Below, one piece after another: positions 38,558 through 46,645 of a stretch of DNA of 64,000 bases (positions within the stretch are counted from its first letter, which is position 1; every line of letters starts with the position of its first letter). A model generated the notes under the pieces. It did not search any database. It worked only from the letters and a program-made list of their open reading frames with translations, and was not told the DNA's origin. The DNA is from Escherichia phage IME11, in sequence record NC_019423.1; one strand, written 5' to 3'. The position numbers were made by a program, and so were the translations under genes.

Positions 38558-38797
38558 TTACTTACTATTTTCTTCAATGAAGCGTCTCATACGTTCCTTT
38601 GCTTCATCATGTTCACGAATTGCTTCATAATCACGAGCAAAGTAGTAAATGCACCACAAACCAATTTCACTTACAAAGAGCAGAATGCTGGCTCGAATGA
38701 ACTGCATATCTGTTTCTAATACAAAGGCTACTTTGTATGCGAAGATTAGTGTGAGTAAGGCACTAGTTAGCATTGTGTACAGAGCTAGTTTTTTCAT
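38558..38797 (-). CDS. small membrane protein
   Basis: 79 aa with two predicted hydrophobic helices. Confidence 0.45.
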   Translation of the reverse strand: MKKLALYTMLTSALLTLIFAYKVAFVLETDMQFIRASILLFVSEIGLWCIYYFARDYEAIREHDEAKERMRRFIEENSK

Positions 38798-39738
38798 TCA
38801 GTAATAGTCTCACCGGGGATTAACTTACGGAATTGGATAAAGTGAAGCAGGTTACCTGAATACAGATTCCCTTCTTTATCCATGGATGTAACACCTTGTT
38901 CCCAGGTAACTGGGTTCATGTTATTCACGTACTTCTCACCAAGGTTCATAGGCGTAGCTTGATGTTCCGTTGGAGAAGCATGAATAGGTTGGTTTTCCAC
39001 TAACTTAGCGAACAAGCCGAGGTCTTCTTCGATAGTAGAAGGGCGTCCTTCAAAGTTGTTATAGGAAGCTCGTGCACAACGTGCAGCACTCACTTTGAGA
39101 AGTAATCCATACATTTCTGCAATACTTGGTTCATCGCGTGTAACTCGATTACGTTTGCAGAAATTATAAGCCCCAACACGGTCACTATGAGTAATATATG
39201 GCAGATGCCAATGTCCATGCGATAGTGTTTTTGGTGAACTCTCTTCTTGTGCCTTACGCATTGCTTGAGCCAGTTCACGAATTTCTGGTTGTGCATCTTT
39301 GTGGTCACGCAGTCCATAGAAGTTAGCCCAGCTTGTTGAAGTTACCACTACACGGATATGTGTGAATGGTTCCAGAATACGGTTAACAATCTGCTTATGT
39401 ACTTGCCCACGACGCAACATTTCAGCATAGGTGGCAACACTGGATGCAGCCTGTTCCCAGATAAAAATTGCATCACTGCGTTGGTCTTCTGATAGCTCTT
39501 CAAATGCTTGCATACCTTTCTGGTTCTTACCCCAGTGACTTGGCATCACTGGTTCATTACGAACTTGTTCGATGAACTTAGCAGTGGGGATAGCACGACT
39601 ACTTGAAGCATTACGGTTGAATACACGGTGGGTCATAAACTCACTGTGAATGAATCGGGGATAAACCAATTCAAAGGTTGTGATACGAGTTCCTGTTTCT
39701 GGATGAACGGAATCTGCAATTACTGATGCCTTAATCAT
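38794..39738 (-). CDS. thyX: ThyX-like flavin-dependent thymidylate synthase (putative, motif variant)
   Basis: 314 aa; segment FMTHRVFNRNASSSRAIP resembles the ThyX RHR-x7-S signature but with THR in place of RHR. Confidence 0.45.
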   Translation of the reverse strand: MIKASVIADSVHPETGTRITTFELVYPRFIHSEFMTHRVFNRNASSSRAIPTAKFIEQVRNEPVMPSHWGKNQKGMQAFEELSEDQRSDAIFIWEQAASSVATYAEMLRRGQVHKQIVNRILEPFTHIRVVVTSTSWANFYGLRDHKDAQPEIRELAQAMRKAQEESSPKTLSHGHWHLPYITHSDRVGAYNFCKRNRVTRDEPSIAEMYGLLLKVSAARCARASYNNFEGRPSTIEEDLGLFAKLVENQPIHASPTEHQATPMNLGEKYVNNMNPVTWEQGVTSMDKEGNLYSGNLLHFIQFRKLIPGETITE

Positions 39739-40583: not shown

Positions 40584-40609
40584 AAAAAAGCCCACGGGTT
40601 ATGTGGGCT
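40584..40609 (-). terminator. rho-independent terminator
   Basis: AGCCCAC-gggttat-GTGGGCT with A-run on plus. Confidence 0.55.
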
Positions 40610-40682
40610 TGGATTAGGAGAAGGATAAGCAATGAGCTGGAAGCAACTTCCAGAAGTACCCTCTTAGGGATACTTCGGTTAG

Positions 40683-40925
40683 TTACTCTGCTTTACTGCC
40701 ACCATTGGTTTGAACAACAGTTACATTTGTAACCTGGTTCTGACCTTTGTTGGACAGTGCCCAAATAAGTGCTACTACCCAGAAGACTAAAGACCAGCCT
40801 AATACGATATTAAGCACACCAATGCCCCACTTAGAGGCATGGCCTCGTGTAAAAGCGATGATAGTAGGGATAAGGTATACAGCTAATACAAATAACAGAA
40901 CAAGGATTGCTGCTAAAGATTCCAT
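40683..40925 (-). CDS. superinfection immunity (Imm)-like membrane protein
   Basis: ATG at 40925 with AGGAA RBS (track start 40961 is GTG); two TM helices; YLIPTIIAFTRGH...NIVLGWSLVFWVVALIWAL resembles the Imm family. Confidence 0.5.
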   Translation of the reverse strand: MESLAAILVLLFVLAVYLIPTIIAFTRGHASKWGIGVLNIVLGWSLVFWVVALIWALSNKGQNQVTNVTVVQTNGGSKAE

Positions 40926-40998
40926 GATGGTTCCTATGTAGGGTTGAGTTAGTTTCTTCACAAATAGCCCAACTATGCTGGGCTATTTAGGCAGCTAC

Positions 40999-41217: not shown

Positions 41218-41724
41218 TTATTTACTGCTTCTTGCAGCTACTGGTTTGTTTTCCTGGTTCTGATACTTGCCATTGTAATTAGCAGGTTCCTGAACCAGAT
41301 GAAATAATACTTGAGCTATCCCAGAACCAGCCGGGATATGCAGTTTTTTACGACCATGATAGACCAATTCGAGGGTAAGATACCCTTTCCATCCTGGTTC
41401 GATTACTGTATTAAATACGGATAATGCACGTCTTGCCCATGTAGACTTGTCGTGAACGATAGCCACACAGGATGGTGACATGTTGAACTTCTCAATTGCT
41501 GAAGCCAATGCGAATTTACCGAGATGGCGTGATACTTGATCTCCATCAACGACCTTCACCATTGGAATCAACCCAAATAAGCAATAGAAGGTAATATCTT
41601 GTTTGATGCGAATATCATAACCAGCTTCACCTAATCCATAGCTTACACCATGTTCGGATACCTTACGGTCTGGTACATCCAGCAACTGAGATGAACGATA
41701 TAGAGAATTACCATTAACAACCAT
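41218..41724 (-). CDS. dcd: dCTP deaminase (dUTPase superfamily)
   Basis: 168 aa; VSYGLGEAGYDIRI, VIEPGWKGYLTLEL and IPAGSGIAQVLFH fit Dcd-family motifs. Confidence 0.65.
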   Translation of the reverse strand: MVVNGNSLYRSSQLLDVPDRKVSEHGVSYGLGEAGYDIRIKQDITFYCLFGLIPMVKVVDGDQVSRHLGKFALASAIEKFNMSPSCVAIVHDKSTWARRALSVFNTVIEPGWKGYLTLELVYHGRKKLHIPAGSGIAQVLFHLVQEPANYNGKYQNQENKPVAARSSK

Positions 41725-42899
41725 TATTTCATTCCTTTAGGGATATGAACTACCTCCCCAAAAGGTACGGTAGCATTGGGATTATTCAGAACACACCAGA
41801 TGATAGGGATATCAAATGGTAATTCTTCCATTGGACGAACATACATATCAGAGAATATGATTGCAGCGGTTGGCTTATTCTTAATAATCCAATCTCGTAC
41901 TGGTTCAAGGTTTGTACCACCACGGCCTGTAATCTTAATCTCTTCGAAAGTATCTTCTTCAGTGATGTCTATTTCTTCCTGAATAATATCGTCGAAGGTA
42001 ATTAAGGACATCTTCTTAGGATTAAACTGGCTCTTAACATAGGCAACCTCTGAGTTAAAACGCAGAGAGTCAGCACTACTAATAGAACCAGATACATCCT
42101 CAAAGTAGGCTAAGTGTCGTAAGCGTCCTTCATCATCTTCCAGGGAAGGTAGATAAATGTCAAAGAAACGACGGTTAGGTCTGGCCCACGTATAATGTGT
42201 GTCATCAATGTCGGTAAAGAAGTTCATCAGAACTTCCTGCCAGGGAACCACTGGTTTAAGGAATTGGGTAATAACCTCTTCCATGCGACCAGCACCTTTA
42301 CCGGGCATTGTTCCACCAGCCATCTTCTGGCTCTGCATTGCACGTACTACGTTGTTGACAACAGCACCCTGGGACTGCCCCGAAGAGGGAGCTTTCATGT
42401 CGCCAGCAAGACCTGCTCCAGCACCCCCAGACGGCTTCTGCCTTTTCTGAGGGTTCTTCATCAGGTCATCGTAGATGTCTTCTTCGACCCATCCTTTATA
42501 TTGAGGGTCTTTGCAAATACCTTTATCAATGCCAGTGAACTTATAACCATCTTCCTCTAACTGAAGGTTAATGAAGTGATCACATGCCTGGTTCCAGACT
42601 TCCGGGTCACGGCTTCCACAACGGATGCCATGTAGATATGCTACATGCCAGAGTTCGTGCATTAACACTGTTTCCCTTGCATCTGGGCACATCCAGATAA
42701 AGAAATCTGGGTTGAAATGGAGTTCTATCCCATCAGTACATGCAGTGGGACAATCCTCACGTTTCCATGAGAACTTAAGACTACACAGCAATGAACCAAA
42801 AAACGCTGCACTGCGTCCTAGGAAAGCGTTGGCCTGAATACGGTCATACTCACGCAAGAGTTGTTCATCACTAAGTGTGTGCTGAGGTATCTGGTTCAT
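41724..42899 (-). CDS. VWA-domain protein with N-terminal HExxH metallopeptidase-like domain (DUF2201-type)
   Basis: ATG at 42899 lies 8 nt after the AAA gene stop (track ORF extends to 42983). HExxH in VLMHELWHVAYLHG; MIDAS-like DxSGS in YFEDVSGSIS. Confidence 0.6.
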   Translation of the reverse strand: MNQIPQHTLSDEQLLREYDRIQANAFLGRSAAFFGSLLCSLKFSWKREDCPTACTDGIELHFNPDFFIWMCPDARETVLMHELWHVAYLHGIRCGSRDPEVWNQACDHFINLQLEEDGYKFTGIDKGICKDPQYKGWVEEDIYDDLMKNPQKRQKPSGGAGAGLAGDMKAPSSGQSQGAVVNNVVRAMQSQKMAGGTMPGKGAGRMEEVITQFLKPVVPWQEVLMNFFTDIDDTHYTWARPNRRFFDIYLPSLEDDEGRLRHLAYFEDVSGSISSADSLRFNSEVAYVKSQFNPKKMSLITFDDIIQEEIDITEEDTFEEIKITGRGGTNLEPVRDWIIKNKPTAAIIFSDMYVRPMEELPFDIPIIWCVLNNPNATVPFGEVVHIPKGMK

Positions 42900-42906
42900 A
42901 GTGTGA

Positions 42907-43959
42907 TTACCCGTGAATGTAACGAGAGATATTAGCAGCAGCCTTACGCCATTCAGGAGTAGCCTGAAGATCTGGTAATGCATTGCCTACTGTACGGAAG
43001 TACAGAATCTTATGGGTGAATGTTTTAAAGCGTTCAATATACTGAAGAACATCAGCAAAGTTTTCTTCAGTAGTTTTGTTAGCCAGATGGTTAACGGTAG
43101 CCCAGCACAGGTTGTTATCTTCCGGTAGTGCACAGCCCATAGGGTCTTTAACTACCTTCTCAATCGTAATCATACGATTGTACACCTGAGTAAACTGAAC
43201 AAATTCTGTAGCTTTACCAGCAGTAACGTGACCTGCATAGTAGATAGAATCTTCATCAGGCAGAGCACCTTCTGGCAGGTTCTTGAGGTCTTTGTTAACA
43301 AAGTCCCAAGTACGAGGACAACAGAACGTTTTGTTTTTATGAGCAGGGTCGAAGTCATGTAGATAACCAGGGTTAGCATGTAAGAATGCAACCAGACGTT
43401 CATCCCATTGCTGAGGAACCATTACGTCTTCAACAAAGATGTCGAAGTTAAGTTCCATTTCAAAGTGAACCACACGAGACTGCATTGCAGTACCTAGTGG
43501 GTTAACAATGGCACGGTCGGTAGCTTTGTTACCAGCACATACAATCATCACATTAGGATGAAGTTTTTTCTGACCTGTCATACGGTCCAGAATCAGTTTG
43601 TATGCAGCAGCTACTACTTCTTTCTTAGCTGAGTTGAACTCATCAAGGAATAAGAGCCAGCCATTATACCCTTCTGGTAATTCATCCCCCTCAATAGGAA
43701 ATAAGTCAGCGAATGGGATAAATTCTGCACGGTCACCATTACGAAATGGTAAGCCAGAAAGGTCTTCCGGGGCAGAAGTAGACAGACGGTGGTCTATCAG
43801 CTTCATACCAAATTCTTCTGCAACAGAACGAATAATTGCAGATTTACCCATGCCCGGTGATGAAGTCAGGAACGGTACGTTACCTGCTCTAAGGGCACGG
43901 ATAATAAAGTTACGAGCTTGACGTGTATTACATACGGTCAAGGAGTCAATGCTTGCCAT
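42907..43959 (-). CDS. MoxR-like AAA+ ATPase
   Basis: 350 aa; Walker A SPGMGKSA, Walker B LLFLDEFN, sensor-like VCAGN; immediately upstream of the VWA partner. Confidence 0.7.
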   Translation of the reverse strand: MASIDSLTVCNTRQARNFIIRALRAGNVPFLTSSPGMGKSAIIRSVAEEFGMKLIDHRLSTSAPEDLSGLPFRNGDRAEFIPFADLFPIEGDELPEGYNGWLLFLDEFNSAKKEVVAAAYKLILDRMTGQKKLHPNVMIVCAGNKATDRAIVNPLGTAMQSRVVHFEMELNFDIFVEDVMVPQQWDERLVAFLHANPGYLHDFDPAHKNKTFCCPRTWDFVNKDLKNLPEGALPDEDSIYYAGHVTAGKATEFVQFTQVYNRMITIEKVVKDPMGCALPEDNNLCWATVNHLANKTTEENFADVLQYIERFKTFTHKILYFRTVGNALPDLQATPEWRKAAANISRYIHG

Positions 43960-43993: not shown

Positions 43994-44323
43994 TTAAGAT
44001 TTGGTGCAGGGATATGCCTTGTGTACTGAGTACACAACAATTTGAGATGTATTCTTCAATTTGAGGATTGCAGAGTCATAAATAACTACTTTGGCAATCT
44101 TAGGCAGAATGTCTGAATACTTAATACCATCTGGAACACAGTTATCAGTGTTCTCGATGTAAGCAATCATACTGCCCATGAAGAATCCTTGTCCGAATGC
44201 ATCACGAGTGTCATCCAGGTAAGCCTGAGCACCTTCCAGAATTGGTTCTGGTTCAATTGCTTGTGCATTTGGGGCCAAAGCTATCAGTGCAGCTACGGTA
44301 AAACCTTTAAGTAAAGTTTTCAT
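43994..44323 (-). CDS. secreted/periplasmic small protein
   Basis: 109 aa; signal-peptide-like N-terminus MKTLLKGFTVAALIALAPNAQA. Confidence 0.5.
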   Translation of the reverse strand: MKTLLKGFTVAALIALAPNAQAIEPEPILEGAQAYLDDTRDAFGQGFFMGSMIAYIENTDNCVPDGIKYSDILPKIAKVVIYDSAILKLKNTSQIVVYSVHKAYPCTKS

Positions 44324-44509
44324 TTAGTTACCTTTCATTTCATTGAGATGAAGTACACCGATAGGGGTTAATGACCACCCAAGACCAGCATTGAACTGTA
44401 CTAAGCCCAGCTTCTTAAGAGACTGTGCGGTTTTGTTATTACGGTTGCTGGTGGCAGAGCCACCTTGAACCATACGAAGGAAGATTGCTTGGGACTGAGT
44501 TAATTTCAA
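44324..44509 (-). CDS. hypothetical small protein
   Basis: 61-aa ORF, tightly packed. Confidence 0.35.
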   Translation of the reverse strand: MKLTQSQAIFLRMVQGGSATSNRNNKTAQSLKKLGLVQFNAGLGWSLTPIGVLHLNEMKGN

Positions 44510-44715
44510 AGGTAATATCCTTCCAGGTTTATTGGTGTTACGAATGTACTTGCTGATAGACAGAAAGACTTACCAGTCTCTACTGCAACAGCAGCAGGTT
44601 TACCATCAGGTAGGTGAATCTTTAGACATACCGTCTGGTTATAAATAAAACCATTAGCAGGCTGCACATCACCAAAAGTTACCTCATTGTTCTCAGAACG
44701 ATTTGTTACTTTCAT
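44506..44715 (-). CDS. hypothetical small protein
   Basis: 69-aa ORF with ATGA coupling. Confidence 0.35.
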   Translation of the reverse strand: MKVTNRSENNEVTFGDVQPANGFIYNQTVCLKIHLPDGKPAAVAVETGKSFCLSASTFVTPINLEGYYL

Positions 44716-45282: not shown

Positions 45283-45311
45283 AAAAAAGACCTCCCTTCA
45301 ATAGGGAGGTC
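45283..45311 (-). terminator. rho-independent terminator
   Basis: GACCTCCC-ttcaata-GGGAGGTC with A-run on plus. Confidence 0.55.
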
Positions 45312-45737: not shown

Positions 45738-46571
45738 TTACTCTGCAACAGTAATAGCGATGGTTACATCGACAGTACCATTGGTAACTACTACAGAAGT
45801 AGCTTCACCAGCAGCCACTGGTTTAACTGTCAGCACATTACCAGCAAGGGTAGCTGTAGCACGAGCAGAATCCGGAGCAGTTTTGATAGTCAGCGTACCA
45901 GCAGAAGAACCAACAGGCATAGCAGCAATTGTTACGGTCTTACCGGCAGCGGTATCAGCAGCAACAGACAGAGCCAGTGAATCAGGAGTAGCTACCAGTG
46001 AGCTTGCTTCGTAGTAGCCTACAGCCAGCAATGAGGTATCTTCTACAGTGGTTCCATTAGCATCAGTAACAATTACTTTATAAGTACCAGCAGAAGCAGC
46101 TGTTACGTCATTAAGAGTCAATGTTGCAGTAATAGCAGATGCGTTCTCACCTGAATCAATATCAGCGAATACTGCACCAGCGGTATCAGCTTTAAATTGC
46201 CATTTATAAGTAAATGGTGCTTTACCACCTGCTACATCAACATGCCAGTTAATATCTTCACCTTCGATAGCGGAGATTACACGAGGCAGTTTGGTAGCAA
46301 TAGTCAGTCGTGGAGTTGCTTTCATATCAATAGAGATAGACTGCATATCCACGATGTTGTTAGGCCAGAAACCTGCTTCAGCAGGGTTTTTAGCAGAGCG
46401 TTTATACAGCAGATCACGTACACCGTGATAGATAACTAAGCTATCAGGGTAAGTGGCATCTGGGTGTACAAAGGTTCCTACTTCTACTGAACCACCGGGG
46501 ATAGAACCACCGGCATCCAGTACAGTTGCGACATTAGTGGTTTTGTTAAAACCTACTTTCAAAGTTGGCAT
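45738..46571 (-). CDS. Ig-like (Big-type) repeat protein
   Basis: ATG at 46571 with GAGGA RBS; Thr/Ala/Val-rich beta-strand repeats (TYKVIVTDANGTTVEDTSLLAVG, VTNGTVDVTIAITVAE) typical of bacterial Ig-like domains. Confidence 0.5.
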   Translation of the reverse strand: MPTLKVGFNKTTNVATVLDAGGSIPGGSVEVGTFVHPDATYPDSLVIYHGVRDLLYKRSAKNPAEAGFWPNNIVDMQSISIDMKATPRLTIATKLPRVISAIEGEDINWHVDVAGGKAPFTYKWQFKADTAGAVFADIDSGENASAITATLTLNDVTAASAGTYKVIVTDANGTTVEDTSLLAVGYYEASSLVATPDSLALSVAADTAAGKTVTIAAMPVGSSAGTLTIKTAPDSARATATLAGNVLTVKPVAAGEATSVVVTNGTVDVTIAITVAE

Positions 46572-46620
46572 ATCAATTTCCTCATAAGTAAATAGCAGGG
46601 TTAGTATACACGATGGGTAA

Positions 46621-46645
46621 AAATAAAAACCCACCTAGTGGTGGG
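46621..46645 (-). terminator. rho-independent terminator
   Basis: CCCACC-tagt-GGTGGG with A-run on plus. Confidence 0.55.

Follow-up and report, generated by a model that had tools for sequence, protein, structure and literature searches.

Genes gp24 and gp25 of phage N4 were tabulated in 2009 as conserved N4-like genes of unknown function, encoding members of the AAA and vWFA superfamilies, respectively (PMC2784036), and both are listed in the core-protein table of the Schitoviridae (PMC7650795). A MoxR AAA+/metallopeptidase-vWA chaperone–cochaperone pair was described by Iyer et al. in 2021 in group 2.2 jumbo phages, for which a role in virion assembly was proposed (PMC7824862). MoxR-vWA couples have also been described as thresholding chaperones of conflict systems (PMC7159879). 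In NorQD, a finger of the VWA protein enters the ATPase pore and touches the helix-2 insert; rotation powered by ATP then pulls on the linker that joins the VWA to the N-domain, and this stretching remodels the target held at the metal ion-dependent adhesion site (MIDAS; PMC13036017). Here, we analysed a 64,000-nt stretch of Escherichia phage IME11 (NC_019423.1; the window) and focused on a block of three consecutive minus-strand genes (positions 41218–43959) encoding an ATPase, a putative metallopeptidase-VWA partner and a dCTP deaminase-like protein (Table 1). The MoxR/peptidase-VWA pair has been described before, and the window carries another near-identical copy of it; a sequence-only reading of the block, which had called the pairing a recurring phage module of unknown function, was accurate in this respect, yet the point was already published.

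We put at roughly 0.5 the probability that the pair acts as an ATP-driven, MIDAS-guided protease or remodeller made with the replication genes, in which, by analogy with characterised couples, proteolysis would be coupled to ATP hydrolysis. The gene identities on which this reading builds are close to certain. The window DNA is ~94 % identical to Gamaleyavirus genomes (e.g. vB_EcoP-ZQ2, St11Ph5, Bp4 and ECBP1), its proteins in this block are 96–99 % identical to known phage proteins, and the three products share 62, 60 and 63 % amino acid identity with N4 gp24, gp25 and gp26, respectively, with identical gene order and strand. On sequence comparison, the block is thus the gp24-gp25-gp26 region of a Gamaleyavirus-type N4-like coliphage, and it is no chance pattern because the hidden Markov model (HMM) E values are accompanied by conservation over hundreds of phages.

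All three open reading frames (ORFs) were confirmed on the minus strand, and the two Walker motifs of the ATPase are as the sequence-only reading had quoted them. In an alignment of 32 homologues (50–88 % identity), N144, R162 and R216 are invariant too, and their positions make them candidates for the sensor-1, arginine-finger and sensor-2 residues; the segment between strands 2 and 3 is also marked by invariant residues (D56-H57-R58, followed by P64, D66, G69 and P71). The HMM assignments expected for the two proteins stood in part: DUF2201_N and DUF2201 passed for the partner and generic AAA passed for the ATPase (27.4 bits), whereas AAA_5 fell short (16.4 bits vs a cutoff of 22). Indeed, no clade-specific Pfam HMM (AAA_5 or AAA_3) was above threshold, NCBIfam returned no match for the ATPase or the VWA protein, and most ATPase homologues are without any precomputed Pfam domain. 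The protein was assigned to PHROG 1297 ('ATPase', E value 4.5e-134).

As AAA_5 remained below the Pfam threshold, the MoxR assignment rests on structure and context. The AlphaFold2 model of the ATPase (predicted local distance difference test (pLDDT) 86.5, predicted template modelling score 0.81) is confident save for the segment between strands 2 and 3, where a β-hairpin (strands 72–74 and 77–79) is modelled inside the conserved DHRLSTSAPEDLSGLP segment with a pLDDT of just 50–73; this hairpin is located where members of the MoxR clade have their helix-2 insert. In a Foldseek search against the PDB, NorQ ranked at the top (7.9e-8), ahead of dynein AAA modules, CbbQ2 (6.5e-7) and midasin, and a midasin AAA module was the sole PDB sequence match, whether a single sequence or a profile was used. 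On this predicted structure and the gene context, we accept the ATPase as a member of the MoxR/dynein/midasin clade, in agreement with the MoxR-type label it had been given. As a separate observation, the ATPase gene is split by HNH homing endonuclease genes in phages Bp4, pSb-1, U1G, VCO139, JA-1 and Pollock, where it is annotated as two ATPase fragments; the insertions may be intein-like, intron-like or free-standing.

The partner belongs to the DUF2201 family (PF13203 and PF09967), with both domains above threshold and in the expected order (DUF2201_N: E value 2.7e-54, 185.1 bits vs a cutoff of 23.2; DUF2201: E value 1.7e-33, 115.8 bits vs 26.4). The N-terminal HExxH domain and the C-terminal VWA domain with a MIDAS that had been proposed from the sequence were both borne out by Pfam and by the motifs themselves. 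We aligned 13 sequences from N4-like genera, jumbo phages, cyanophage S-TIM5, one Vequintavirinae phage and Aeromonas phage PAc, with identity to the query down to 22 %. Invariant positions comprise H81, E82, H85, N103, A105, D107, N111, Y143, G200, R243, D268, S270, S272, G328, T329, D351 and G381, such that the VWA fold carries the canonical MIDAS positions (DxSxS, Thr and Asp). D107 is a candidate for the third zinc ligand, while H90 is not invariant. Catalysis is favoured over mere metal binding because the catalytic Glu of the HExxH motif, E82, is invariant.

The AlphaFold2 model of the partner (pLDDT 76) shows an N-terminal domain that is folded to approximately residue 150. A disordered, Gly-rich linker comes next, then a helical segment and a second disordered stretch (residues 233–256) holding a conserved W-x-R-P-N-R-R motif (residues 238–244), after which comes the compact VWA domain. 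In a PDB profile search, the HExxH region was weakly matched to the minigluzincins MJ1213/projannalysin and to the M48 peptidases HtpX/BepA. No peptidase fold was found for the partner in two fold searches, which were dominated by VWA matches, with the CLCA1 VWA domain at the top of the Foldseek results.

Two points of annotation concern this gene. The ORF lister and some GenBank records give a longer, 419-residue reading from an ATG at 42983; we rejected it because four close relatives (L013–L016), whose VWA proteins are 96–97 % identical to that of the window, have no counterpart ATG in the upstream extension. Database homologues begin at the same short position as the 391-residue reading, i.e. 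at the ATG at 42899. Furthermore, PHROG 1314 and many RefSeq and GenBank records label the partner 'HNH endonuclease'; no HNH family was among its Pfam matches, hence we regard the label as a propagated misannotation. In Klebsiella phage vB_Kpl_K57alpha1.2, the closest match at the protein level, an annotation of 'virion RNA polymerase' extends across both genes, which is an error.

Table 1. Coordinates of the features of the gp24-gp25-gp26-like block and of its predicted transcription unit in the window
Feature	Coordinates	Strand	Evidence or conservation
MoxR-clade AAA+ ATPase, 350 aa	42907..43959	-	ORF; Pfam AAA; PHROG 1297; AlphaFold2 model; Foldseek; orthologue of N4 gp24
Walker A SPGMGKSA, residues 34-41 (SSPGMGKSA with preceding Ser)	43837..43860	-	G38, K39, S40 invariant in 32 homologues
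Walker B LLFLDEFN, residues 102-109	43633..43656	-	D106, E107 invariant in 32 homologues
DUF2201-family protein of 391 aa with a zincin-like peptidase domain, a flexible linker and a compact VWA	41724..42899	-	Pfam; relatives' starts; AlphaFold2; orthologue of N4 gp25
Putative metallopeptidase domain, residues 17-253 by Pfam	42141..42851	-	Pfam and AlphaFold2 model
HExxH motif HELWH, residues 81-85	42645..42659	-	H81, E82, H85 invariant in 13 sequences
VWA domain, residues 263-386	41742..42113	-	
MIDAS DxSxS = DVSGS, residues 268-272; completed by T329 and D351	42084..42098	-	Invariant over all aligned lineages
dCTP deaminase-like protein, 168 aa	41218..41724	-	Pfam DCD; PDB sequence matches; orthologue of N4 gp26
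Intrinsic-terminator-like hairpin upstream of predicted transcription unit	45289..45311	-	9-bp stem, 6 GC pairs, T-run
Intrinsic-terminator-like hairpin closing predicted transcription unit	40588..40610	-	8-bp stem, 5 GC pairs, T-run

The identities of the genes and their motifs, folds, conservation and synteny are shown here; complex formation, ATP-coupled proteolysis, its timing and the class of its target we infer along the following lines, with NorQ/NorD and CbbQ/CbbO as the models. The gp24-like motor probably forms a hexamer, as in analogous systems, and the gp25-like protein would be its dedicated partner. The MIDAS site would capture a specific substrate protein through one of its acidic residues; the ATPase ring would then engage the VWA protein through its helix-2-insert pore loops, and ATP hydrolysis would twist or stretch the linker. 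This movement may be coupled to cleavage by the fused HExxH domain, either via exposure of the substrate or via release of an auto-inhibited peptidase. A NorQD-like mode is proposed because the phage partner shares the layout of N-domain, linker and VWA, with the peptidase as the N-domain. As for the target, a conserved host or element-associated protein is most likely, ahead of a virion protein or the deaminase, with no class of target given much more than a one-in-three chance.

The pairing was assessed in 80 N4-like loci from IMG/VR (38–97 % identity in the VWA protein) by tblastn. In all 75 loci with enough upstream sequence, the VWA gene is preceded by an ATPase gene of the same orientation, so the loss of the pairing in close relatives that would have spoken against the module was not seen. 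The gap between the two genes is ≤100 nt in 37 of these 75; longer gaps carry homing endonucleases or small ORFs of various kinds. We considered whether N4-like phages share a third gene at this position and rejected the idea, as the inserted ORFs are heterogeneous and form clusters of at most 4. Beyond the N4-like phages, the pair is found together in three jumbo-phage genera (Asteriusvirus, Mimasvirus and Eneladusvirus) and in S-TIM5, Planktothrix phage Pag-Yong1, Salicola phage SCTP-2 and Aeromonas phage PAc, and is divergently arranged, ~4 kb apart, in the Vequintavirinae. Plasmids of Burkholderia, Cupriavidus, Rhodovastum, Rhodococcus and Synechocystis, searched by tblastn, carry it as well, as do cyanobacterial chromosomes, for which contigs encoding homologues were inspected. 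A profile of the N4-like proteins matched 22,081 cluster representatives (50 % identity clusters) at E≤1e-3 and 5,632 at E≤1e-30.

Some of these contexts bear on whether the pair is a morphogenesis chaperone/protease that aids the assembly of virions and the proteolytic processing of structural proteins, as proposed for the jumbo phages, with the Acidianus two-tailed virus p618/p892 proteins as a precedent (PMC7824862). In Asteriusvirus, Mimasvirus and Eneladusvirus, the pair is flanked by structural and tail-fibre genes. Its neighbours in S-TIM5 are Hsp20 on one side and, on the other, a gene with a virion structural annotation, whose product has FG-GAP repeats by Pfam; on plasmid pBVIE02 it is just upstream of type IV secretion genes. 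Core-gene status would also fit a role in assembly (PMC7650795). However, in the N4-like phages the pair is located in the early/middle arm, on the strand opposite the structural genes. In the window this long minus-strand arm includes RNAP1, RNAP2, ThyX, rIIA/rIIB, helicase, DNA polymerase and primase, and the plus strand holds the 3456-residue virion RNA polymerase (vRNAP) and the structural genes; in phage PEV2, the genes flanking the pair are annotated as early transcribed on the basis of RNA-seq. The shared strand and arm, together with the early-annotated PEV2 flanks, suggest that the machine is produced alongside the products of the transcription and replication genes and not those of the virion genes. 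Moreover, the pair is not virion-specific, because it is found on plasmids and chromosomes that make no virions, including non-mobilizable plasmids and cyanobacterial chromosomes without virion or secretion genes. The mass-spectrometry paper on CsCl-purified Moo19 virions does not mention an 'ATPase', although a factor that acts in assembly may well stay out of the particle. For close relatives, particle proteomics gives 44–56 'particle-associated' proteins, and cannot discriminate between the readings because replication enzymes are included among them. Taken together, we consider a virion-assembly role distinctly unlikely.

The plasmid and chromosomal copies raise a different possibility, namely that the pair belongs to a conflict system: in phages, a counter-defence or host-takeover protease, and on plasmids and chromosomes, a thresholded defence effector in which the MoxR/vWA couple would control when the peptidase is set free to attack a protein from the opposing genome. 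Cupriavidus plasmid pRK1-1 carries an ATPase-DUF3150-VWA triad (L101, 7094–8011 being DUF3150) near PRTRC/ThiF genes. The layout is the same on Burkholderia and Rhodovastum plasmids, whose middle ORFs of ~300 residues (L010, 6013–6942; L011, 6066–6965) resemble each other and are found near ParB, toprim or type IV secretion genes; Pfam gave no match for the Burkholderia ORF in the ATPase–VWA interval. In three of three cyanobacterial loci (L104, L105 and L106), a leucine-rich variant (LRV) repeat protein neighbours the DUF2201 gene, and the cyanobacterial copies reside in islands with toxin-antitoxin, GIY-YIG, HIRAN and E2/JAB/ThiF genes. At one such locus E2-CBASS, Prok-JAB and ThiF are 6 kb off, and at another there are BrnT and HEPN/nucleotidyltransferase toxin-antitoxin genes.

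These islands, in which DUF262 genes are also present, are consistent with the view of MoxR-vWA couples as thresholding chaperones of conflict systems (PMC7159879), as are the PRTRC/ThiF, zeta toxin and MazF genes near plasmid copies, the spread of the family over phages, plasmids and chromosomes, and the operon that the phage copy shares with a superinfection-immunity gene and a Tai4/Rap1a-like gene. On the other hand, the island contexts come from a handful of loci, no PADLOC protein model matched the ATPase, the VWA protein or the dCTP deaminase, and strict core status across Schitoviridae of alpha-, beta- and gammaproteobacteria is atypical for counter-defence. We therefore treat a conflict role as possible but unlikely.

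The third gene was also given weight by the sequence-only reading, which held its coupling to the pair to be worth testing. The protein is recognized by Pfam DCD (E value 6e-16, 59.3 bits vs a cutoff of 27) and its top PDB sequence matches are all dCTP deaminases; the equivalog TIGR02274 scored 79.6 bits, below its cutoff of 92.8, and the protein may be either a monofunctional deaminase or a bifunctional Dcd-dUTPase. The VWA-gene stop does overlap the start of the dCTP deaminase gene (dcd) as claimed, the two sharing a single base (the A of TAATG at 41724), whereas the spacer between the ATPase stop and the VWA-gene ATG, reported as 8 nt, is 7 nt in the sequence (TAA-TCACACT-ATG). Of 77 N4-like loci, 63 have dcd downstream of the pair and in the same orientation; the gap is ≤20 nt in 34 of them, at most 400 nt in another 16 and wider in 13. 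No dcd adjoins the pair in Litunavirus PEV2, Pacinivirus VCO139 and Efbeekayvirus Halo_KS_7, where the next recognizable genes are a helicase and DNA polymerase, or a gene annotated as exonuclease V, or in any non-Schitoviridae context examined (jumbo phages, S-TIM5, Vequintavirinae and plasmids among them). In PEV2 and the roseophages DSS3phi2/EE36phi1, which retain the pair, a dCMP deaminase is encoded in place of dcd. The special coupling to dCTP deaminase is thus not upheld as it was put; the adjacency is largely an ancestral, lineage-specific synteny of the replication/nucleotide-supply arm and not a defining part of the module, and the deaminase is a co-transcribed neighbour outside the machine.

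The junction itself can be read in two ways. In L013 (9173–9625) and L014, the VWA protein is 97 % identical to that of the window, yet the dcd allele encodes 150 residues, is 46 % identical and is without an internal segment; from the sequences, one allele seems to have replaced another while the junction stayed fixed. In L013, the locus inspected in detail, the divergent allele still overlaps the VWA stop as ATGA, and some selection on the VWA–dcd junction is favoured because the overlap persists with so divergent an allele. However, stop/start overlaps of 1–4 bases are routine in this operon, occurring at five junctions of the same stretch (39738, 40181, 41724, 44506–44509 and 44712–44715), so the VWA–dcd overlap as an operon-wide trait says little.

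A broader link to pyrimidine deoxynucleoside triphosphate (dNTP) supply would have the pair mature, activate or regulate dCTP deaminase, thymidylate synthase or another nucleotide enzyme, by analogy with NorQD, CbbQO and CobST, and characterised MoxR/VWA pairs do activate enzymes. The immediately downstream, translationally overlapped dcd is one element of this argument, and thymidylate synthase is another, being encoded soon downstream of the pair in three lineages by non-orthologous enzymes. In the N4-like phages this is a long, divergent ThyX, with a ThyX-like gene within 6 kb in 44 of 71 loci, towards which the dCTP deaminase would feed dUTP/dUMP. The ThyX of the window (38794–39738, minus strand, 314 residues) has a partial Pfam Thy1 match (52 bits) and a TIGR02170 score of 57 against a cutoff of 88. 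Jumbo phages encode ThyA (PF00303, E value 3.6e-101) 1.5–2.5 kb downstream (L006, 8942–9871; L093, 9575–10504; L094, 9474–10412), and S-TIM5 encodes a canonical ThyX within the same range of distances (L007, 8633–9304). Two candidates for further nucleotide links were dismissed on checking, the 'thymidylate kinase' of KpS8, whose label has no Pfam support, and a PA5oct-like 498-residue protein.

Since most N4-like phages have dcd and ThyX directly after the pair, and the pair is near non-orthologous thymidylate synthases in two unrelated lineages, it could be tied to thymidylate (dTTP) supply, maturing, gating or protecting the phage pyrimidine enzymes. Nevertheless, outside the Schitoviridae the proximity holds in 2 of ~7 phage lineages and was noticed post hoc (~0.2 expected by chance, p about 0.02, both rough estimates). 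The pair persists without dcd or with a dCMP deaminase in its place, and no nucleotide-metabolism genes adjoin it in the Vequintavirinae, Pag-Yong1, SCTP-2, or the plasmid or chromosomal loci. Enzyme activation, furthermore, needs no invariant catalytic Glu in an HExxH motif. We regard coupling to pyrimidine enzymes as very improbable, and give the narrower tie to dTTP supply equally little credence.

Several points weigh against an ATP-driven, MIDAS-guided protease. Those MoxR/VWA pairs that have been characterised act as remodellers or as chaperones for metal insertion and not as proteases; the likeness of the N-terminal domain to known peptidases is weak (E value about 2e-3), and the third zinc ligand rests on the candidate D107. 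Factors directed at the host or against its defences are not usually strict core genes of a whole phage family, a status that fits better with a function in the phage's own replication or assembly, and jumbo phages and S-TIM5 have the pair amid structural and chaperone genes. The intrinsic terminators that delimit the transcription unit come from a simple scan only. In the literature on DUF2201, N4 gp24/gp25, sll7028/9 and phage gene-essentiality screens, we found genome annotations and no functional data.

The pair is among fewer than twenty proteins common to all N4-like phages, and no family member has a known substrate or phenotype; interest rests on the role of a widespread pair and not on features specific to the window. 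If the pair does prove to be a MIDAS-guided protease gated by ATP, this and the identity of its target would close a gap in N4 biology and add a new functional class to the MoxR/VWA chaperones. In practical terms, the 'HNH endonuclease' label should be corrected and the dCTP deaminase adjacency recorded as lineage-specific synteny.

With regard to the wider locus, the two terminator-like hairpins bracket approximately ten genes, including those for the AAA, VWA and dCTP deaminase proteins, with ThyX in the next unit. Directly upstream of the ATPase gene, a 109-residue protein (43994–44323, minus strand) has an N-terminal hydrophobic, signal-peptide-like stretch, read by eye from the sequence, and is weakly matched in Pfam by Rap1a, an immunity protein of type VI secretion (18.5 bits, short of the cutoff); its counterpart in phage 24-32N is annotated as 'tai4 protein'. 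The last gene of the predicted operon (40683–40961, minus strand) encodes a superinfection-immunity protein (PF14373, E value 1.1e-16). The position of a further gene in the early/middle arm, away from the structural genes (45738–46634, minus strand), matches that of a gene annotated as 'Hoc-like head decoration protein' in phage 24-32N.

Among known systems, two are related to the phage pair by analogy only. CLCA proteins have an N-terminal self-cleaving zincin protease that precedes the VWA domain, and the VWA domain of CLCA1 is the closest structural match of the partner; however, CLCA1 has no ATPase partner. FtsH is an AAA+ protein fused to an HExxH protease, but is without VWA and belongs to a different AAA+ clade. 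There is no evidence for common descent of the CLCA1 or FtsH peptidase domain with that of the phage partner. The Acidianus two-tailed virus proteins p618 (MoxR) and p892 (VWA) likewise form a virus-encoded MoxR/VWA pair (via PMC7824862) but, in a comparison made by description, are without a peptidase domain and act in extracellular tail growth. NorQ/NorD and CbbQ/CbbO each combine a MoxR ATPase with a VWA adaptor that remodels a target enzyme. NorD and CbbO differ from the phage partner in having no peptidase domain, their targets are metabolic enzymes, their VWA domains are much larger than that of the phage protein (~130 residues), and the sequence similarity to the phage pair is negligible. 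Closer still is the pair found in jumbo phages of group 2.2, which has the same two-gene architecture and Pfam domains at 25–30 % identity, but sits among structural genes, whereas the pair in the window sits in the transcription/replication arm. The nearest described system, N4 gp24-gp25-gp26, is like the window in gene order, strand and orthology, and differs in the spacing between the ATPase and VWA genes, which is 167 nt in N4.

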